From sequence record EU863408: a DNA stretch of 64,000 bases; one strand, 5' to 3'. The notes under the pieces are model-generated. The model worked only from the letters and a program-made list of their open reading frames with translations, was not told the DNA's origin and ran no database searches. The stretch's first letter is position 1; every line of letters begins with the position of its first letter. Shown here one piece after another: positions 3,934 through 56,136 of the stretch. A program made the position numbers and the translations under genes. The DNA is from Escherichia phage JSE.

Positions 3934-4407
3934 CTATTTGTTAAGCCCTTTAAAGCCAAACACTTTCTTTAATGCATGTTCGGTGATGATCTTAAACTCC
4001 ATGTTATGCTTTTGGCATAATTTCACGGCAGCTAACCATTTTTCAGTATTTTTTGTGTATGTCCATACTTCATGCATATATCGTTGCTTTGTCTTCGCGG
4101 TCATTCTTTTTGGCTTTTCCGGTGGCCTTGTCTCTTTAGCTGGTTTAACTTCCCATAAATGCTCCTTGCCATCATCAAACTTAACGTAAAAATCCATAAA
4201 GTATCTGTGTCTTTTTCCGTCTGTTGATGACTCATAAGGAATTACTACGGTCTCAGATCCCCATTTTGCAACTCTAGGATTGCGGTCTAGCCACTGCATG
4301 ATCCATCTTTCCCAGCTTGAACGGTATGTGATCTTACGTATATCCCCTTTATACTTTTCCTTATTCTCAGGAACATACTTGCCCTTATAAGTGTTAGATC
4401 CTCCCAT
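3934..4407 (-). CDS. 4: head completion protein (gp4-like)
   Basis: 157 aa; YKGD..TYRS.WE...W signature recalled from T4 gp4. Confidence 0.8.
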   Translation of the reverse strand: MGGSNTYKGKYVPENKEKYKGDIRKITYRSSWERWIMQWLDRNPRVAKWGSETVVIPYESSTDGKRHRYFMDFYVKFDDGKEHLWEVKPAKETRPPEKPKRMTAKTKQRYMHEVWTYTKNTEKWLAAVKLCQKHNMEFKIITEHALKKVFGFKGLNK

Positions 4408-4422
4408 TTTAGCACCCTTTAT

Positions 4423-4430
4423 TATAAATA
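4423..4430 (+). promoter_or_regulatory. T4-type late promoter TATAAATA upstream of gene 53
   Basis: exact TATAAATA 33 nt before the ATG at 4463. Confidence 0.5.
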
Positions 4431-4462
4431 CATAATACTATTTATCAATTGAGGGTGATAAA

Positions 4463-5017
4463 ATGCTCTTTTCTTTCTTCCCTGCCATTGAATACAACGG
4501 CAAGATGATTACTGACATTGTGCGCAATTACCGCGCATATTTCAACGCAATAATTTCTGATTATAACATACAAACATATTACATTCAAGGTAGTCCACGA
4601 CCGGAACAAGTTGCATATGAAGTATACGGAAACCAACAACTTTACTGGATCTTGCTGATGCTTAATGACGTATACGATCCGTTCCATGACTGGATCACCG
4701 ATCAAGAGACAGCATATGAATCAGCCGAACAACGATATGCAAATGTCGGAGGAAATCAAGTATTATACCACGTTGATATTGACGGAAACAAGTATTGGAA
4801 TCTTACCGAATATCCGAAAGGATCAAGCAATTGGTATGATAAAGGGGATATTCATCACCGTCATTTGCAGTTTCATGGTGCATTGTCGGCAGTGGACACA
4901 CTGGAAGATGCGATCCTCCGTAATGAGGAACGACGCAAGATCAAGATCATAGATCCTACACAAATTAAACAATTTATTAACGCATTCATTCGAGAAATGG
5001 AAAAGGCTGATGTGTAA
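4463..5017 (+). CDS. 53: baseplate wedge protein gp53-like
   Basis: 184 aa; position before gene 5. Confidence 0.8.
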   Translation: MLFSFFPAIEYNGKMITDIVRNYRAYFNAIISDYNIQTYYIQGSPRPEQVAYEVYGNQQLYWILLMLNDVYDPFHDWITDQETAYESAEQRYANVGGNQVLYHVDIDGNKYWNLTEYPKGSSNWYDKGDIHHRHLQFHGALSAVDTLEDAILRNEERRKIKIIDPTQIKQFINAFIREMEKADV

Positions 5018-7696: not shown

Positions 7697-9597
7697 CAAA
7701 GCAAAAGATTACACAAATTCCTGATATTTTTAATGCTGCTACATTCGATGAAATTAAAAGCGCATTAACAGACTGGATGAGAAACCAGGAAGAATTTAAA
7801 GATTTTGATTTTAATGGTGCTGGTATTAACGTATTGATGGACTTGCTCGCATATAACACTCTGTATATTCAGCAATTCGCTAACGCCGCGCTATATGAAT
7901 CTTTTATCAGAACGGCAATTAAGCGTAGTTCAGTTGTTCAAGCCGCGCAAGATTTAGGATATTTGCCAGCAAGTAAAACTAGTGCATCGACTACAATTAT
8001 GTTGCACGTAACACATCCTCGAAATCCGGCAAGTATTCGAATCCCACGAGGAACTAAATTTATTGCAAGTGTGGATCGCCAGACGTCTTATCCGTTTGTG
8101 ACTACAGAAGACGTTGTGAGCGTTTTAGGTTCAAATGGTTTATATACGCCTATGCTTAAAGTCGCACAAGGTCGTATTGTTCGTACAGAAATGTTATTTG
8201 ATCCGAAGAAACAAATTCTGATCCGCGATCCTGATATTGACCGCGCTCAGGTTAAATTGTGGGTAGACGGTGCTGAATGGAAAGACTGGACACGAGAAAG
8301 CATTGTTAACGCAACTGGTGCAAGCAATATTTTCTATATGCGTGAAACCGTAGACGGTCATACAGAAATCTTCTTTGGTGAAGGTGAATCAACTTTATCT
8401 GCTGCTGGCGGTGCACTGGAAGCAAATTATATTGGTGGACTTAAGCCGTCAACTGGTGCTAATATTGTTATCGAATATATCAGCACTAAAGGCGCGGAAG
8501 CTAACGGATCTGTCAATTTCACATACGCGGATACATTGGCATCTATCTCTATTGTTAAAATTATTGAGAATCCGACAAATGATCGTGATTATGTCGGTGC
8601 AGATGGTGGTGGTGATCCTGAATCAATCGAACGTATCCGTGAACTTGCTCCGGTAATGCGTGAATCTCAGCGTCGTTGTGTTACTGCTTCTGACTATGAG
8701 GCTTTTGTATCTAGCCGTTTTGGTAGTATTGTTCAGGCGGTACAATGTTTCACCGACCGAGAAAAACCGGGTTATGCTTTTGTTGCTGTTAAGCCTAAAT
8801 CTGGCTTGCGTTTGACAACTGTTCAAAAAGAAGATATGCGGGATTATCTGGCAAAATATAATCTTGCCCCTATCACGCCGAGCATCATTGACCCAAACTA
8901 TCTGTATATTAAACAGAATATTAAAGTTTCCTATTCAATCAATGACTTGTCAGAATCAGAGCAGTGGTTGCGCGGTGCGGTTATTGATCAGATTGATGCA
9001 TATTATACCGACGAAGTGGAAATTTTTAACCAGACCTTTAGTAAGTCTAAAATGCTTGCTCGTATTGACAAAGCTGATGTATCTGTGATAGGTTCTAGTG
9101 CAGAAATCGAGATGGTGCGAGAGATCGACAACTTCTATAAAGCACCTATGGCTGGAATCAAGTTTTTAAACCAGTATAAGAGCGGAATCAAGTCTAGTTC
9201 ATTCAACTTCGAAAAGGACGACAAGCAATATCCGATCCATTATGTAAGTACAGAAATGAACAAAGAATCCGGTTTAGCTAAATTGCTGGTTGGACCTTTC
9301 CCTGTTGGTTCTGCAATCGCTTTACCGCACTATTCCGGCACTGATTTTGATAAAGAGGTTATCGACGGTGCGGACCTATACTTTGAGGTTGGAGAGGTTC
9401 AGCATTATGACGACCTTATTTCATGGGATCTGGGTAAACTGAATATCAATAGCGATCGCTTTACTGGTTCATATATTGAGTTGACAGCTAAACCGATTGC
9501 TGATAACATCTTTACTAAAGACGGTTCTTTGATCGTGTTTGAAAACGATCTCCGTCCTCAGTACACAACTATTAGTCTGGAGGCAATTGCTCAATGA
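7693..9597 (+). CDS. 6: baseplate wedge protein gp6-like
   Basis: 634 aa; order 5-6-7-8. Confidence 0.8.
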
Positions 9598-49559: not shown

Positions 49560-50617
49560 TGAAAATTAGTGTTATCAATGATGCCGTTGATAGCTTTAAA
49601 GCGGGGGTTAAAACCTCCGCTGGTTTTACCTCAAAAAATAAAGGGAAAACATTAACCGCTCAATTCCCCGCTGAACGTGCTAGCGGTAATGATGCTAGCG
49701 GTTATTATATCAACGACTTATATAATAATGGTCTGTTATTCACTGCATACGATTACACATCCCGTACTACTGGATCGTTGCGTGATTTCAGGAAAAAGAA
49801 AAATGTTGCTAGCGGTTTTGGCGGTAGCGTTAATATCGCTGGTTTTGATTTAAATTTGGGTGGGAGAAATGCTGCATTTGACCGAGAGGCAATTGCTAAT
49901 ATTCTTCTTCCTCGTAGTCAATCTGACGTTGACGCTGCCAGCCATAAGTTTAATGATGTTGGTGAATCTGTTATTTCTCGCGGCGGTGGTACTTTAGGCG
50001 GTGCTCTTTCTAATATGGCATCTACTGCCGTTTTTGGTGGTATCGAAAGTATTACTGGTGGATACCTTGCCGATCACGGTGAACAGATTTATAATACTGC
50101 GCGAAGCATGTATGCGGGTGCTGACGCACGAACGAAAAACTACGTATGGCATCTAACCCCACGTAGTATTGAAGACCTTCGCAATATTCTGATCATATAC
50201 GAAACGTTTTTAGAGTTGTCTTATGGTTCTAGTGGTATTTCCAGCACCGCAAAAGAATTAAAAGCGGAAGTTGATGCGTGGTATAAAAATACACTATTGA
50301 GCAAATCCACTCCAGCCGAGGCAAAGAGAAATGATACGCTGTTTGAAGGGATCACCGATTTTCTATCCAACGTAATTACTGTATCTAACCCGACAATATG
50401 GATGATCTCTAACTTCGGCAAGCGTACATCGTTTGAAGGGCGTAGCGATGCATTTGGTCCCGCTCAGATCTCAAGTGTACGTCTGGACAAGTCGCCTGAT
50501 GGTAAGTTTAATGGCCTTGCTATTTCTCCTAACTTGCCGAGTACCTTTGTTCTGGAAGTATCATTTAGAGAGATCTTGACACTTTCCCGTGGTACTATAT
50601 TTGGGAGTGCGGCATAA
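49559..50617 (+). CDS. 48: baseplate-tail tube junction protein gp48-like
   Basis: 352 aa; position. Confidence 0.75.
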   Translation: MKISVINDAVDSFKAGVKTSAGFTSKNKGKTLTAQFPAERASGNDASGYYINDLYNNGLLFTAYDYTSRTTGSLRDFRKKKNVASGFGGSVNIAGFDLNLGGRNAAFDREAIANILLPRSQSDVDAASHKFNDVGESVISRGGGTLGGALSNMASTAVFGGIESITGGYLADHGEQIYNTARSMYAGADARTKNYVWHLTPRSIEDLRNILIIYETFLELSYGSSGISSTAKELKAEVDAWYKNTLLSKSTPAEAKRNDTLFEGITDFLSNVITVSNPTIWMISNFGKRTSFEGRSDAFGPAQISSVRLDKSPDGKFNGLAISPNLPSTFVLEVSFREILTLSRGTIFGSAA

Positions 50618-51549
50618 TGTTTGATTTAAATGACTTTAACGAACAAGCCGCTAACCTTGACTTTCAGCGATCTAACTTATTCAGCGTGGCATTTGCCACC
50701 ACTCCAAGTAATAAGACACAAGCGATCCTAGAAAGTATGGGTGGTGCGGTATATGATATTATACCAAATGCATTAAATGACTATTTCGGGATTACTCGTG
50801 GTGATTATACTGACGCATTAACAAATCTTGCTGTACAGGGTGTTAGGCGTGCTGTTGATTCATCTGGTGTCAAAAAGTATCTTTTAGGTGCAATGTCATC
50901 CCGCGTAGTTCAATCTCTTCTGGGGCAATTTGATGTTGGTACATATGCGCTTGACTGGTTCAATATGGCATATAAGACAAGCGGTCTTCTGGTGTATGCT
51001 GTTAAGGTTCCAGAAAACAGATTGAATTATGAAATGGACCGTAACCACAATGCGCCAAACATTCGAATTACCGGACGTGATTTTGATCCGCTTGTATTGA
51101 GCTTTAGAATGGACTCTAGCGCATCAAACTATAGAGCAATGCAGGATTGGGTTAACTCAGTAGAAGACCCCGTTACAGGGCTTCGTGCGCTTCCTGTTGA
51201 CGTTGAAGCAGATATTCAGGTCAACTTACATAACCGAATGGGAGTTCCTCACACGATCATGATGTTTAATGGTTGTGTTCCTGTTGGTGTGAGTGCACCG
51301 GAATTAAACTATGAAAACAACAACGAAATCACAACATTCGATGTTACTTTCGCATATCGTTCTATGCAAACTGGTGCTGTAGGAGAGCAAGCCGCGCGAG
51401 AATGGATTGAGGATAAGGCAATAAACGCAATAACAAACACTTTCGGTAATAATTTACTTGATAGTGGGTTATCTGCTGCTGGTAATGCTTTATCGCGTCT
51501 AAATGGCGTTGGTGGGCGTGTGGTGAATACTGTCACTAACTGGTTCTGA
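50617..51549 (+). CDS. 54: baseplate-tail tube initiator gp54-like
   Basis: 310 aa; position. Confidence 0.75.
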   Translation: MFDLNDFNEQAANLDFQRSNLFSVAFATTPSNKTQAILESMGGAVYDIIPNALNDYFGITRGDYTDALTNLAVQGVRRAVDSSGVKKYLLGAMSSRVVQSLLGQFDVGTYALDWFNMAYKTSGLLVYAVKVPENRLNYEMDRNHNAPNIRITGRDFDPLVLSFRMDSSASNYRAMQDWVNSVEDPVTGLRALPVDVEADIQVNLHNRMGVPHTIMMFNGCVPVGVSAPELNYENNNEITTFDVTFAYRSMQTGAVGEQAAREWIEDKAINAITNTFGNNLLDSGLSAAGNALSRLNGVGGRVVNTVTNWF

Positions 51550-51558
51550 TAATCGAAA

Positions 51559-51587
51559 GGCGGGGATAATCCCCGCCTTTTTATTTT
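51559..51587. terminator. bidirectional terminator between gene 54 and the lipoprotein gene
   Basis: GGCGGGG-ataat-CCCCGCC followed by TTTTTATTTT. Confidence 0.6.
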
Positions 51588-52066
51588 GCTAAATCATTGC
51601 AATATTTTAGTGCCTTAGTTTGAAATTCTGCGCTGTTAAGTTCTTCATAACGGTCATAATCACCGTTTAATGCTGCCTTTCTTGCTTCTTGCTCTATCTG
51701 CATGTCAGACATGATAATACAGCGATCCCGTGCTTTCATCTTCTCAAGTTGTATAGACTCTTCTTTCTGTTTGCGCAATTCTTCTTGACGCTTCTTTTCT
51801 TCTCGTGCTTTCTCTTCCCGCGCTTCTTTGATTGCATCCTTGAACATCTGCGTTTGTGGTGCTAAACCAACTTTAACGCGATCCACGTCTCGACGTTCCA
51901 TTTTAGAAATAAAGCATGATTCGATCTGATCATCACTTGCATATGCTGCTTTACATTCACGAAGCAAGAAAACCGGATCTGATTTAGCATTCATCATAGC
52001 TTCCATGTTAGCACAACCAGTAAGAATGAATGCAGCCGCAAGACCAATCAGTTTAATCATTTTCAT
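51581..52066 (-). CDS. putative lipoprotein
   Basis: 161 aa; signal peptide with lipobox LTGC; charged helical C-terminal half. Confidence 0.55.
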   Translation of the reverse strand: MKMIKLIGLAAAFILTGCANMEAMMNAKSDPVFLLRECKAAYASDDQIESCFISKMERRDVDRVKVGLAPQTQMFKDAIKEAREEKAREEKKRQEELRKQKEESIQLEKMKARDRCIIMSDMQIEQEARKAALNGDYDRYEELNSAEFQTKALKYCNDLAK

Positions 52067-52887
52067 TTAGTCACCTCACCGAAAATTGTAAATTGTCTAC
52101 GATTCTCATCGCCGAAAGATTCTACTACGTCGTTTACCTTGACGCAAGTCCCGCGCGGTAAAATTACTTCACATTCGCAAGGGTTCCATGCAATGGACCC
52201 AACAACAAAACCTTTATGATCTTTTACATCAATCACCCATGATACATTACAAGAATGTTGCATCTTTCCGGTCATTGATTCATATCGATTCTCACAATAA
52301 AGGCTAGTGCTGTTTGATAGCCATCCTCCAAAGATGATCGGTGTCATGCTGGTCGATACAAAGTTTTTAAAGGTAAACTCCTTATCTTCAATGATGCGCT
52401 CTATTGTCTGAATGTCAAGATGTTGACCGCGATAAAGAGTACCGTTTAACTTTTCGGTTTTATCCATGACGCAATCCATCAAATCAACAATCTCTGATAT
52501 CTCATCGGTCATGTCTTCTTCGCCTAAGAGAGCACCATTTACCCATTCGTATTGTTCAGACACATAATCACAGATTGCAGTATATTCTTCTGGGGTTATG
52601 TTGTTATGTTTGTAATGTTTGAATACATTATCTCCAAAGTCTTCGGAGTGTACTTCATACATCACATTAATGATTTTCTTGACAAATCCATAATCTTGTG
52701 TCTCACGCTCAAGGAAGCGGATAACCTTCACATAATCATCAAAGTTAATCTGATCGCTGATCATCTCAGTGATCATGTAACCATTAATCCCCTCAATGTC
52801 ATATGTTTCGATGTAATTATCCATACGTTCCATCATTGATTCGCGTGATTCTTCCGAAAGACGAAAATCCTGTAATTGTTTGAACAT
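52063..52887 (-). CDS. Alt-like ADP-ribosyltransferase paralog
   Basis: 274 aa; R-S-ExE triad LYRGQ, FVSTS, CECEVILPRG; GGGAGG before ATG. Confidence 0.65.
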   Translation of the reverse strand: MFKQLQDFRLSEESRESMMERMDNYIETYDIEGINGYMITEMISDQINFDDYVKVIRFLERETQDYGFVKKIINVMYEVHSEDFGDNVFKHYKHNNITPEEYTAICDYVSEQYEWVNGALLGEEDMTDEISEIVDLMDCVMDKTEKLNGTLYRGQHLDIQTIERIIEDKEFTFKNFVSTSMTPIIFGGWLSNSTSLYCENRYESMTGKMQHSCNVSWVIDVKDHKGFVVGSIAWNPCECEVILPRGTCVKVNDVVESFGDENRRQFTIFGEVTK

Positions 52888-52902
52888 TTTAAACCTCCCA
52901 TA

Positions 52903-52940
52903 TAACAGAAAACGGGGCTAGTATAAAACTAGTCCCCGTT
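52903..52940 (-). terminator. intrinsic terminator after alt
   Basis: minus-strand ACGGGGACTAG-loop-CTAGCCCCGT followed by TTTTCTGTT. Confidence 0.5.
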
Positions 52941-52965
52941 TGAGTCAACCATTATTTCTTAAAAA

Positions 52966-55017
52966 TTACATTTTAAATTTATCTGGCATTGCGTCTACAG
53001 ATACCAGATCAGCGATAAGCTGACGTAGAGTTGCCTTATCTGCTTTCTTACGTTCGGTTTTAGCTTCGCTAATGAAGCTGGAGAAAGACAGGTCAGAAGC
53101 AGGTTTAACAACACCTTCACGGATGAATGCATCACCGTCTGCGATCATCTCGCCAGATTCTTGTAATGCTGCCAGTTCATTTTTGTTCATAATATGTGCC
53201 TCAATGTAATAAGTTTCTTGTGAATCCGTCGATGCCGTAGCACGAGTTACCGTATCAAAGGATAACACAACACCGCGAGGAAGTAAAATCTCGCATTCTT
53301 TGTAAGCAAATGCTTTGTTACCTACTGGCAATACAGGGATGTTTTCCGCGCCAGCAATGGAGAAAGCAACATTAGCGCCACCTTCACCGCGAGAGCCAGC
53401 CATAGAATCAACACCAGCAACGGCACTAGCCACGTTTGCATTCCAGCCGCCAAAAATGTTAGGTGCAAGGGAAGTGCTCACATAGTTTTTAAAGTAAAAC
53501 GCTTTTTGCTTACGTGCAGTTTCCCACATTTGCGACCGGAAGTCCATACCACGATACAGAATAGTACCCGGATCAAGTTTAACGCCATAGTTGGAGAAGG
53601 CATTATCCAGTGCATCGCACATCTTGACCAATTCTTCTGGATCTGAGATTCCTTCAAACTCTTCCAGCTTACGGTCGGTTAGGAAGTTGTTCATATTGAT
53701 GTATGCTGCATCGGCATATTCGCTCAACACAAAACCTTCCGCGCCTGGCAGATCAAGATCAATATTTGCCATCATTTCACCCATGTTGCTAGCAATTGCT
53801 TCAAACATACCGGAAGCAACATTACGTAGGGCATCGGTTTTAATCTGGGTGATATTACTACGCAGCATTTCAGCTTTTACATCTGCTGGCATAGACTGGT
53901 CTACTCGATCCATTGCCAGTGCGGTGATCTTGTTTTCGAATACTTCCTCGCTCATGATTTCTTTTAAGCGTTTGATTGATGCTGCGATAACTTCCGCAGA
54001 CAACGGATCATATTGATCCTGAACTTTTACCAGTTCGCTTACTGCGTATTTTGCATCGGCTTCGCTTTCAAAAATAGTACGCATGAAACCATAGCGAGTG
54101 ATAATATCACTTGTCCAGTCATTCAGAGAACGGGCGGTTGAACGTTCTAAGGCTTGACGATCAATCAGAGTATTAAACTGTTTCTTAGGTTCTGCTTCGG
54201 TGATATCTTCTTCCGGTTTAAGATTAATTTTTTCTGGATGATTCACATAGTCGCTGTTATAGGTCGCTTGAGTTTTCAGCATTTCTTCTTTAGTCAAACG
54301 AGATTTAGCCGCTACGCGTTGTTCCGCTTCCGCGTTTCGTTCTTCTTCTGACACAAGACTAGCCGCATACGCTTCATCTTTAGTCAGAGATTCACCAGTA
54401 GCCTTAGATACCCAGCGATCACCTAAATCACTTTCTACTTTAGTGAACAAGGAATCATCAAGTTTAATCCCTTTAATCTTATCAATCGCCATACCGCGAC
54501 GCTTGACAACAACTAAAGCGATCTTTTTGCTGGTCATTACTTCCTGCTGGAATACTTCAAACTTCGGTGTACGACGCACCAAACGCTCTATAACGCGCTT
54601 AACCAGTTCGGTCTTACCTTTCATGCGGGATACGTTAAAACGGAACATAACAGCGTCTAGTTGCGCTTTACGGGCTGTTTCCATAACCACATCAAAAGCA
54701 CTTGACATAACTGCAATCGGGTTATCGCCTAGACCATTTTTAAGCTGTACAATACGACCGCTTTTGTTCATTTCGCACAGTACAACATGTGCGGTCTTGT
54801 CACCCATACGAATGATTTTAGGTGTTTTGTTGGTGAAGTTACAAAGACGGACAATCACATCTTTATCGCGTGTCTGTACTGCAAAAAGCTGTTTAGGATT
54901 CTGCTTAGGCTTTAAGCACTGTACCGGGGCAATACTACCAAAGTTTTCTTCCTCTTCCGTCAACAGCCATTTCTCGAAAGATTCAATCATTAGATCGTCG
55001 ATTTCTAAGTTAAACAT
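52966..55017 (-). CDS. alt: Alt ADP-ribosyltransferase (packaged protein)
   Basis: 683 aa (T4 Alt 682 aa); ILYRGM, YVSTS, ECEILLPRG. Confidence 0.8.
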   Translation of the reverse strand: MFNLEIDDLMIESFEKWLLTEEEENFGSIAPVQCLKPKQNPKQLFAVQTRDKDVIVRLCNFTNKTPKIIRMGDKTAHVVLCEMNKSGRIVQLKNGLGDNPIAVMSSAFDVVMETARKAQLDAVMFRFNVSRMKGKTELVKRVIERLVRRTPKFEVFQQEVMTSKKIALVVVKRRGMAIDKIKGIKLDDSLFTKVESDLGDRWVSKATGESLTKDEAYAASLVSEEERNAEAEQRVAAKSRLTKEEMLKTQATYNSDYVNHPEKINLKPEEDITEAEPKKQFNTLIDRQALERSTARSLNDWTSDIITRYGFMRTIFESEADAKYAVSELVKVQDQYDPLSAEVIAASIKRLKEIMSEEVFENKITALAMDRVDQSMPADVKAEMLRSNITQIKTDALRNVASGMFEAIASNMGEMMANIDLDLPGAEGFVLSEYADAAYINMNNFLTDRKLEEFEGISDPEELVKMCDALDNAFSNYGVKLDPGTILYRGMDFRSQMWETARKQKAFYFKNYVSTSLAPNIFGGWNANVASAVAGVDSMAGSRGEGGANVAFSIAGAENIPVLPVGNKAFAYKECEILLPRGVVLSFDTVTRATASTDSQETYYIEAHIMNKNELAALQESGEMIADGDAFIREGVVKPASDLSFSSFISEAKTERKKADKATLRQLIADLVSVDAMPDKFKM

Positions 55018-55061
55018 TTTATATCCTCTAGTTGATAACCTATAAACCTATATTTATGAAA

Positions 55062-55085
55062 ACGGGGCTTAACGCCCCTTTTTAT
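55062..55085. terminator. hairpin terminator separating the hyperplastic region from alt
   Basis: GGGGC-ttaac-GCCCC with T-runs on both strands. Confidence 0.5.
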
Positions 55086-55297
55086 TATAATGCACCATCG
55101 AGCAATTGCTCTAAGGTGTATCCTGAATAGTCTTTTTCAATCAGGATATATTTTCCTACTCGTTTAATACAACCGCGCATTTCAACGTATTCTGCGTAGT
55201 TGATGGTACGAGTTGTTCCATCTTCCAGTAATGCAGTACCGATTTCGTTAATGCGGTCATAAGTTACGTCGGTAATGATGATTTCGATGTTAGCCAT
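55085..55297 (-). CDS. hypothetical protein (MANIE N-terminus)
   Basis: 70 aa; AGGAG before ATG. Confidence 0.5.
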   Translation of the reverse strand: MANIEIIITDVTYDRINEIGTALLEDGTTRTINYAEYVEMRGCIKRVGKYILIEKDYSGYTLEQLLDGAL

Positions 55298-55333
55298 TTG
55301 ATACTCCTTAGTAGTTCGTTTCTGTATGGGTGT

Positions 55334-55362
55334 ATTATGATATACACCCTCTGTTATGTCAA
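55334..55362 (-). promoter_or_regulatory. repeated early-promoter cassette, copy A
   Basis: minus-strand TTGACA-N17-CATAAT; dyad GGGTGTAT/ATACACCC over the -10. Confidence 0.5.
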
Positions 55363-55368
55363 CAACTT

Positions 55369-55548
55369 TTAGAACATTTTTGAAATTAATTCTGCTTTGA
55401 TTTCGCAGAGAACATCTAAAGATTTCTCGTCACCCGCTTTTGCTGCTTCTGCTTGCATTTTTGAAATGGCTTCAATCTCAGTGCAATTATAAGCCGCTTG
55501 AACTTTAGCGATTGCGATGATTGCCGATTCGATGGTTAAGTGTTTCAT
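55369..55548 (-). CDS. hypothetical protein (59 aa)
   Basis: conserved 5' leader GGAGAATCAAAC before ATG; below ORF-track cutoff. Confidence 0.45.
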   Translation of the reverse strand: MKHLTIESAIIAIAKVQAAYNCTEIEAISKMQAEAAKAGDEKSLDVLCEIKAELISKMF

Positions 55549-55580
55549 GTTTGATTCTCCTTTCGTTTCGGTATGTGTGT

Positions 55581-55609
55581 ATTATAGGGGATCGATGATC
55601 CCCTGTCAA
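55581..55609 (-). promoter_or_regulatory. repeated early-promoter cassette, copy B
   Basis: minus-strand TTGACA-GGGGATCATCGATCCCC-TATAAT. Confidence 0.55.
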
Positions 55610-55617
55610 CAACTTTT

Positions 55618-56136
55618 TTAGTTATTTTTTAATTGCTCATCTTGCAATAGGGCAATCACATGCTGGCGATGTTCTTCCGATTGAGGCACACCGAAAAAGT
55701 TTGTTTTGTAGAAATACTCTAATCGGTCTTCTCGTGTGCTCTCTTCCATCATGATCGCGGGTAGTCCGAGATTTCGGAAACGTCGCTTTTCTGCTGGCGT
55801 AAAATCACTGTAATACAACATAGAATCATCATTACCAGCAATGCTAAACTCATCCTTCATAAAGGAGAATATTGCGTTTAAACGCTGTTTACCGTCCACG
55901 ATTTCGATCTCATAGCGAGAGCCATCATCAATCTTAGCCATTGCGATAGCACCAACCGGAAAATCATTAATCAGGTTTTCGATAAACATACGTTTGTTTT
56001 CTGTGTCCCATACTAAAGGACGCTGATAATCTGGGTTCATGTTGATATAGCCATCTTCTAACCATGCATCATAAACAGAGATGACAAAGTTTTTAGTATT
56101 GGTATAGTAACGGCGTTTAGGCGTTAAACGGTTCAT
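55618..56136 (-). CDS. DUF262 (ParB-like nuclease/NTPase fold) domain protein
   Basis: 172 aa from internal ATG (MNRLTP); motifs PDYQRPLVWD, FPVGAI, VDGKQRLNAIFSF; ATG 1 nt after the upstream stop. Confidence 0.6.
   Translation of the reverse strand: MNRLTPKRRYYTNTKNFVISVYDAWLEDGYINMNPDYQRPLVWDTENKRMFIENLINDFPVGAIAMAKIDDGSRYEIEIVDGKQRLNAIFSFMKDEFSIAGNDDSMLYYSDFTPAEKRRFRNLGLPAIMMEESTREDRLEYFYKTNFFGVPQSEEHRQHVIALLQDEQLKNN

Follow-up and report, generated by a model that had tools for sequence, protein, structure and literature searches.

The closest described relatives of the locus analyzed here are T4 Alt, an RNA polymerase ADP-ribosyltransferase (PF03496, Alt/VIP2), and the duplicated genes derived from it. 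RB49 ORF183c, T4 alt.-1/alt.-2 and 44RR ORF188c are paralogous duplications of alt (Nolan et al., 2006; PMC1524935). We analyzed a 64,000-nucleotide (nt) stretch of Escherichia phage JSE (EU863408; hereafter the window), a Krischvirus (RB49-like, T4-type coliphage), at the gene pair that corresponds to RB49 ORF183c, a short Alt-type enzyme, and ORF182c, a predicted lipoprotein. On the minus strand, alt is followed by an open reading frame (ORF) of 274 amino acids (aa) and one of 161 aa, and the plus-strand baseplate gene 54 converges on them. A 1.7-kb region matches 57 phage records at 95–99% identity, including RB49, Phi1, GEC-3S and ECD7. The pair is already known from the 2006 literature and from GenBank annotations. 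Nolan et al. (2006; PMC1524935) listed a signal peptide at residues 1–20 of ORF182c and a terminator '54-><-RB49ORF182c', and predicted the early promoter Pe:112388 between alt and ORF183c in RB49. RefSeq names ORF183c 'ADP-ribosyltransferase', and the downstream gene in phage W115 is annotated in GenBank as 'putative lipoprotein'. Literature searches found no functional study of ORF182c or ORF183c. Our analysis adds one new point, a modest new lead: closely related phages exchange the mature part of the lipoprotein.

T4 alt.-1/alt.-2 and the second alt of Tequatrovirus are likewise derived from alt and lie directly downstream of alt and upstream of gene 54. The T4 genes are short N-terminal fragments without the catalytic domain, whereas here the catalytic half is intact and conserved; Tequatrovirus alt_2 is full length, whereas ORF183c is shortened. 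For the lipoprotein, the nearest described systems are T5 Llp, T4 Sp and T4 Imm, each an early-made, exported small protein of a virulent phage, as ORF182c is predicted to be. Cor and TraT are further envelope exclusion factors. ORF182c differs from Llp, Sp and Imm in being larger, all-helical (in its model) and equipped with four cysteines. T5 Llp is an inner-leaflet outer-membrane lipoprotein, which is also the location predicted for ORF182c. The two genes and the exchanged segment are:

52063–52887, minus strand: short enzyme, a 274-aa truncated Alt paralogue (RB49 ORF183c) with core R153 / S178-T-S180 / E238-x-E240
51581–52066, minus strand: predicted 161-aa lipoprotein (RB49 ORF182c), with signal peptide and lipobox at 52013–52066 and a predicted helical, four-Cys mature protein at 51584–52012
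51584–52009, minus strand: polymorphic cassette of the lipoprotein gene, 41–57% nucleotide identity against 94–100% in the flanks

The exchange is visible in phages that otherwise match the window closely. Phage 011D4 is 99% identical to the window in Alt, 99% in the short enzyme, 100% in gp54 and 27% in the mature lipoprotein; for Whisky, JK32 and AV108 the corresponding values are 99%, 96–99%, 86–87% and 24–26%. Of two metagenomic relatives, one (L020) has Alt at 98% and the enzyme at 96%, with a lipoprotein 32% identical to allele A and 64% to allele B; the other (L021) has Alt at 98% and the enzyme at 93%, with a lipoprotein 31% identical to allele A and 73% to allele C. Within Krischvirus, the enzymes are 93–99% identical and the lipoproteins only 27–85%. 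Sliding-window DNA identity of 011D4 and E26 is 41–51% within 51600–51999 and 94–100% on both sides of the gene. In the multiple alignment, identity is near-perfect through the 3' end of the enzyme gene and the signal-peptide codons, collapses directly after the Cys-Ala codons and, in the B-type phages, returns at the terminator. Mosaics of B and C lipoprotein halves also exist. A distant phage (L009) is 46% identical to the window in Alt, 44% in the enzyme, 81% in gp54 and 39% in the lipoprotein. The B and C alleles are thus farther from A than this distant orthologue is, which argues for replacement by recombination rather than fast drift. Judging from these alignments, the mature part of the lipoprotein is replaced by recombination.

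The T-even IP1 locus provides an analogy, and only that, in having a short conserved N-terminal leader followed by a hypervariable body that is exchanged between close relatives. The leaders differ in kind: the lipoprotein has a Sec/signal peptidase II signal peptide that would send its product to the envelope, whereas the IP1 leader targets the capsid. Internal-protein (IP) loci are discussed by Arbiol et al. (2010; PMC2839356). Separately, the record of Escherichia phage E26 (MN655998) contains at 4322–4834 an intact 170-aa B-type lipoprotein ORF that carries no annotation in GenBank.

We lean towards reading the pair as a two-gene early unit that makes a cytoplasmic truncated-Alt enzyme and a separately acting, exported envelope lipoprotein, and we hold this with slightly more confidence than doubt. 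On this reading, RB49-like phages would transcribe the two genes as one unit, which lies between the late gene alt and gene 54, with which it converges. Its enzyme would most likely stay in the cytoplasm, ADP-ribosylate one or more host proteins with NAD+ and serve host takeover, while the lipoprotein would alter the envelope of the infected cell. The most likely role of the lipoprotein is exclusion of, or protection from, competing phages, or else some other change to the envelope, an assignment that we hold loosely: the protein would be early and exported, it is polymorphic between phages that circulate together, and it is the sole protein of this kind predicted in the genome. Homologues of T4 Imm and Sp were not detectable in the composite RB49-type genome, so an exclusion role would be unfilled there. 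Host takeover for the enzyme and superinfection exclusion for the lipoprotein are plausible as separate roles.

The original prediction had proposed that the enzyme and the lipoprotein act as a pair, and here the data point the other way. That the lipoprotein is swapped while the enzyme beside it stays constant argues against co-adaptation in a complex and against a toxin-immunity relation. The two are also predicted to occupy different compartments, so the products would be linked by expression and not by contact. The two products probably act independently.

The other claims about the enzyme held up with one correction. Its coordinates and motifs, like those of the lipoprotein gene, had been given correctly: LYRGQ at residues 151–155 (R153), FVSTS at 176–180 and CECEVILPRG at 237–246 (E238, E240). 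A BLASTP alignment of the short enzyme with the window's Alt (37% identity over 109 aa, E = 9e-17) pairs R153, S178-T-S180 and E238/E240 with Alt R489, S514-T-S516 and E574/E576, in agreement with the proposal of a second Alt-family enzyme with a catalytic triad. Both proteins pass the PF03496 gathering score, the short enzyme with E = 9.3e-16 (58.2 bits against a cut-off of 23.4) and Alt with E = 1.5e-09; T4 Alt has the same R, STS and ExE motifs. Eight homologues, the most diverged at 24% identity, all keep these residues. The short enzyme also matches PHROG 15144, named 'ADP-ribosyltransferase'. The claim that fell is that of a different N-terminal region, which is really a deletion: residues 8–268 of the short enzyme align with positions 330–602 of the Alt profile PHROG 802 (E = 2.9e-45), that is, with the central and catalytic part of Alt. 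The enzyme is therefore a trimmed Alt with no new targeting domain.

By these alignments, the short enzyme is Alt, encoded in tandem and in the same orientation, minus the first ~330 residues and the last ~90, and it retains a complete R-S-ExE catalytic domain. The lost N-terminal part corresponds to PF26846 (Tevenvirinae_ADPRT), a domain recorded on the neighboring Alt of relatives and not on the short enzyme. The lost tail includes the propeptide cleaved by gp21; the short enzyme stops ~10 residues short of the LQE/LTE site that matches T4 LTE-619, where gp21 cuts. We rejected identity with an Alt orthologue given the length (274 aa against ~680), the missing PF26846 domain, the missing C-terminal gp21 site and the missing late promoter. 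No signal peptide is present. The AlphaFold model has a predicted local distance difference test score (pLDDT) of 79, and Foldseek matched it with probability 1.0 to Vis, C3bot, iota Ia, CDTa, C2-I and Tre1; for the first five, TM-scores of ~0.6–0.68 (normalized to target length) support a C3-like fold, as a comparison of a predicted model rather than a solved structure. The ExE motif is the arginine-specific signature of the R-S-E enzyme class. Motifs and model together fit the short enzyme to the R-S-E (C3/VIP2/Alt-type) ADP-ribosyltransferases, with arginine as its predicted target type. It is intact at 96–99% identity in the 57 Krischvirus records. In Shigella phage JK32 (L004 3171–3182) the enzyme is annotated three codons longer (MFKMFKQL...) owing to a 9-nt tandem duplication of the start region, and either ATG might serve as start.

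T4 ModA and ModB, which are early and non-packaged, work in the way expected of the short enzyme, as small enzymes that are produced early inside the infected cell. Membership in the ModA/ModB group was nonetheless rejected: BLASTP against T4 ModA and ModB gives no significant match (E = 0.42 and 1.1), and the short enzyme derives from Alt. RB49 (NC_005066) has a ModB homologue at 8917–9420 (tblastn E = 1e-7 to T4 ModB), and no ModA homologue was detectable in the composite RB49-type genome searched. With Alt and the short enzyme, this gives RB49 three ADP-ribosyltransferases, as in T4.

The lipoprotein N-terminus, MKMIKLIGLAAAFILTGC, carries a lysine in its n-region, followed by a hydrophobic core and the lipobox LTGC, which had been noted from the sequence alone; residue +2 is Ala. 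The lipobox fits the pattern [LVI][ASTVI][GAS]C. In the composite RB49-type genome only two ORFs fit a lipoprotein signal pattern, ORF182c and the o-spanin gene pseT.2. ORF182c is not itself the o-spanin, since RB49 has its own spanins, pseT.2/pseT.3, with a lipobox ORF, and ORF182c lies elsewhere and is far larger. The T4 gene at the same position, alt.-3, was rejected as a counterpart because it is not a lipoprotein. Most family members carry LTGC, MTGC or LFGC, and all have Ala or Ser at +2, never Asp. Under the Lol rule, a residue other than Asp at +2 directs a lipoprotein to the outer membrane. Ala at +2 thus implies outer-membrane sorting: after export, the pre-lipoprotein would receive its lipid at Cys18 and end up on the inner face of the outer membrane.

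AlphaFold gives a confident, all-helical model (pLDDT 87), with a central helix of 63 residues (72–134). Besides Cys18, each member keeps four further cysteines (38, 51, 116 and 156), the last two being 40 residues apart in all members but one, which suggests two periplasmic disulfides. The mature lipoprotein would then be an elongated all-helical rod with the two probable disulfides as staples. The Glu/Lys/Arg-rich part of the central helix at residues ~85–110 (window ~51737–51814) is polymorphic in length, with an 11-residue repeat insertion in the metagenomic variant P0041 and deletions in KFS-EC (156 aa) and P0016/P0043, and rod length appears free to vary. The protein belongs to PHROG 16112 (function unknown). 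Searches of Pfam, NCBIfam and PADLOC gave nothing above cut-off and only matches at the level of the signal peptide; a sequence search of the PDB gave no meaningful match, and Foldseek against the PDB gave none at E <= 0.001. Sequence homology to T4 Sp or Imm was not detected, and none of the structural matches listed pointed to a solved lipoprotein or exclusion factor.

The genes are joined by the following elements:

52063–52066, minus strand: ATGA stop/start overlap of 4 nt, common to both genes
52072–52077, minus strand: Shine-Dalgarno sequence GAGGTG of the lipoprotein gene, made by the Glu-Val codons of the enzyme gene
51555–51581, either strand: bidirectional hairpin terminator, common to the convergent gene 54 and the lipoprotein gene (the entry of Nolan et al., 2006)

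The stop/start overlap reported earlier is real, and chance does not account for it, for the catalytic motifs or for the lipobox. Since the lipoprotein gene begins at the stop codon of the enzyme gene and takes its ribosome-binding site from the last enzyme codons, the lipoprotein would be translated from the same mRNA. The arrangement recurs in relatives: in seven lineages the enzyme ends in ...F[GAC]E[VI]..., with GAGGT or GAGAT at the equivalent place, and the spacing of the two genes varies between an overlap of 8 nt and a gap of 1 nt. Co-transcription, on which the original prediction depended, is in keeping with the overlap and with the one terminator, placed after the lipoprotein gene. 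With no space left for a terminator between the two ORFs and one hairpin closing the unit, co-transcription and translational coupling of the pair, as predicted, are well supported by the architecture.

A candidate control element lies in the 78 nt that separate alt from the short enzyme:

52920–52948, minus strand: sigma-70-type promoter TTGACT-17-TATACT, 10/12 match, the RB49 Pe:112388 of Nolan et al. (2006)
52910–52941, minus strand: bulged G+C hairpin overlapping the -10 box and followed by UUUUCU, -18.9 kcal/mol, z = -5.45
52894–52899, minus strand: Shine-Dalgarno sequence GGGAGG of the short enzyme, read from the sequence

Both parts are conserved. The promoter hexamers and their spacing are invariant in relatives whose enzymes are only 40–62% identical, and the complete promoter-hairpin element is nearly invariant in four such metagenomic relatives. 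An alignment of the hairpin in five sequences has 97.8% of cells paired and two compensatory pairs. No late-promoter motif of the TATAAATA type lies upstream of the short enzyme; a sigma-70-type promoter is there instead, whereas alt has a late-type one. The layout, with a sigma-70 promoter, a stem-loop and an AT-rich upstream stretch followed by a Shine-Dalgarno sequence and a start codon, agrees with that of the promoter and stem-loop elements termed PeSLs. Arbiol et al. (2010; PMC2839356) describe the PeSL cassettes of RB49/phi1 as an AT-rich stretch with the upstream stop codon, a sigma-70 promoter, a G/C stem-loop on the -10 box, a Shine-Dalgarno sequence and a start, as found here; in the text consulted, the ORF183c element is not named among the PeSLs. 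Unlike an exchange between two PeSLs, the exchange here is bounded by the signal-peptide codons and the downstream terminator.

The hairpin is predicted to attenuate or terminate alt transcripts; hairpin and promoter together make up a predicted PeSL-type element that would insulate the unit from alt and should turn it on early in infection. The conserved sigma-70 promoter and hairpin, set against the late-type motif at alt, therefore suggest that the short enzyme and lipoprotein genes are probably an insulated early unit. A promoter-like sequence within the enzyme coding sequence (TTGACA-16-CATCAT, 10/12 matches, 52391–52418, minus strand) could give the lipoprotein gene a separate transcript. 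An Rfam scan of 50500–56000 found nothing near any gathering score.

A search of 1.84 billion representatives with a profile built on 13 lipoproteins returned no more than 10 proteins, every one a member of this family; a word-index search gave 46 clusters, all Krischvirus-like; the lipoprotein occurs in 56 of 50,697 phage records, all Krischvirus; and IMG/VR holds two lipoprotein loci, both of allele A. By these sequence searches, the lipoprotein is a tiny orphan family. The order alt, short enzyme, lipoprotein, convergent gene 54 was found in all 14 distinct contexts examined, six from Krischvirus records and eight metagenomic (L009/L010, L013, L016, L017/L018, L019–L022). The linked short enzymes are PF03496 proteins of 264–282 aa, with identity to the window's as low as 27–62% among these relatives. 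Shared expression signals, together with a gene order that is stable in this phage group, are explanation enough for such strict linkage.

Other explanations give the two proteins different roles. The short enzyme might be packaged in the capsid and injected like Alt and the T4 internal proteins, its first 12 residues (MFKQLQDFRLSE, followed by E) being a propeptide cut at [L/I]xE; it would then have arisen by internal deletion in a duplicated alt, with the targeting leader kept. T4 Alt is cut by gp21 after ITE-6 and LTE-619, short N-terminal propeptides target T4 head proteins, and the prohead protease of T4 recognizes [LI]xE (PMC5694885). Alt begins with MFNLEIDDLMIE before S in the window and with MFDPQLLETLLE before S in relatives, which resembles the leader MFKQLQDFRLSE in length and pattern. 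An [LI]xE motif occurs within the first 13 residues of six of eight short enzymes, against 13–16% of the long ORFs in the window, and in several of them it falls in the same alignment column. T-even internal-protein genes also lie behind sigma-70-like promoter/stem-loop elements (PMC2839356), so an early-type promoter is compatible with packaging. Yet the 12 N-terminal residues are not conserved in sequence, two homologues (L013 and L016) lack the motif, and the N-termini are Glu-rich, so that [LI]xE is expected fairly often. The ~330-residue N-terminal domain (PF26846) and the C-terminal propeptide of Alt are both missing, and there is no late-promoter motif. Literature searches found no virion proteomics of a Krischvirus. 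We regard packaging as unlikely, though it deserves to be kept in view. That the short enzyme is instead a decaying remnant of a duplicate alt, like T4 alt.-1/alt.-2, with the lipoprotein an unrelated passenger and neither gene of significance, has in its favor the broken second-alt remnants of T4 at the same position and the two full alt copies of some Tequatroviruses, which show that this locus duplicates and decays. But the ORF is undamaged in every one of the 57 records, the catalytic residues are constant among highly diverged homologues, and length and promoter are conserved in distant relatives; decay is already largely refuted by these data and is the most improbable alternative considered.

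Two further explanations concern the lipoprotein. In a toxin-immunity or physically interacting module, it would neutralize, anchor or export the enzyme, as in Tre1/Tri1. Such a module would fit the tight translational coupling and the constant association of the two genes in all contexts examined, and the closest solved sequence match of the enzyme is the Tre1 toxin, solved with its immunity partner. Cognate pairs should co-vary, however, and here enzymes 99% identical accompany mature lipoproteins 24–27% identical. NAD+ is found in the cytoplasm, and the enzyme lacks a signal peptide, whereas export is predicted for the lipoprotein; the lipoprotein also matches no immunity or ADP-ribosylhydrolase family in Pfam, NCBIfam or PADLOC. 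A module of this kind is very unlikely. Alternatively, the lipoprotein could mask the phage's own receptor, comparable to T5 Llp or to TraT acting on OmpA, and so prevent superinfection and loss of progeny on debris. TraT hinders phages specific for OmpA. This role would fit both the predicted early expression and the predicted sorting to the outer membrane, RB49-like phages use OmpA on rough strains (PMC9569957), and T5 Llp is an early inner-leaflet outer-membrane lipoprotein that blocks FhuA. Against it, we rejected the idea that the lipoprotein allele tracks the type of gp38 adhesin, as all three main alleles occur with both gp38 types, and allele A is found in OmpA-dependent (RB49, Cognac49) as well as OmpA-independent (Brandy49) phages. 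No solved lipoprotein is among the significant structural matches; the only one listed is QseG, at E = 9.4. A receptor-masking form of exclusion is therefore not favored, and we consider it quite unlikely, if less so than a toxin-immunity module.

Several observations also weigh against the reading that we prefer, an early unit of a cytoplasmic enzyme and an independent envelope lipoprotein. The B-type alleles carry an atypical lipobox, LNGC. Pe:112388 has a low score, 9.3 against 19–39 for other RB49 early promoters (Nolan et al., 2006; PMC1524935), and late read-through from alt into the pair may also occur. The pair is so strictly conserved that a functional link may still lie behind it. 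The lipoprotein alleles follow neither gp38 adhesin type nor OmpA dependence, and the lipoprotein model has no informative structural neighbor, T4 Spackle not being among the best matches listed. The expression, timing, localization and activity of both proteins, like the exclusion role, are predictions from sequences and models.

Upstream of the pair lie the parent gene and its own signals:

52966–55017, minus strand: alt, full-length Alt ADP-ribosyltransferase of 683 aa, the upstream parent paralogue (PHROG 802 E = 1.6e-179, PF03496)
55050–55078, minus strand: hairpin at 55064–55078, then late-promoter-like CATAAATA at 55050–55057, 33 nt ahead of the alt start

The gene is annotated as alt in RB49, Phi1 and others. 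The CATAAATA motif is located at -41 relative to alt, and its T4 counterpart, TATAAATA, at -33. A hairpin followed by [T/C/A]ATAAATA is common to the window, T4 and two metagenomic relatives (L009 and L020; AATAAATA in the relatives), from which we infer that alt is late, as in T4. In the C-terminal region of Alt (window 53100–53170, minus strand), ELAALQE/SGEMIADGD aligns with T4 EELTE/SVIYDGD (gp21 site LTE-619, slash at the cut), which suggests that RB49-like phages also process the C-terminal propeptide in the way reported for T4 Alt. Farther upstream, two near-perfect sigma-70 promoters with palindromic G/C spacers, TTGACA-17-CATAAT and TTGACA-17-TATAAT (55334–55362 and 55581–55609, minus strand), each stand ahead of a small ORF. 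They are classic PeSL elements, with Pe:114800 and Pe:115047 as their RB49 equivalents. On the other side of the pair, genes 48 and 54 (window 50300–51500, plus strand) have 63–94% DNA identity in Whisky, JK32 and AV108 (86–87% for the gp54 protein) and 98–100% identity in 011D4 and E26. The baseplate tube genes are hence also mosaic among Krischviruses, independently of the lipoprotein allele.

A bolder interpretation is that the lipoprotein founds a new family of envelope determinants in RB49-like phages, a swappable rod that excludes or senses competing T4-like phages in the role of Imm/Sp, which have no detectable counterpart here, and that the truncated Alt is perhaps an injected 'mini-Alt'. 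We think this improbable. If true, a constant signal peptide would carry an exchangeable helical rod, stapled by disulfides, to the outer membrane, and the allele swaps would reflect an arms race among co-circulating phages; a 'mini-Alt' may keep the cleavable leader of Alt and so enter the host with the DNA.

The gene pair by itself adds little, as 57 sequenced Krischviruses have it, with annotation, and its enzyme has been known as an alt paralogue since 2006. The RB49-type set of ADP-ribosyltransferases (Alt, an Alt-derived short form and ModB, with no ModA) differs in origin from that of T4, and the two sets offer a natural comparison for the evolution of target choice and timing. The lipoprotein is the sole predicted non-spanin lipoprotein of the genome. 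Because therapeutic-type coliphages that are otherwise near-identical differ by replacement of its mature part, it is a concrete candidate for phage-phage exclusion. Such exclusion could matter for cocktails of RB49-like isolates.

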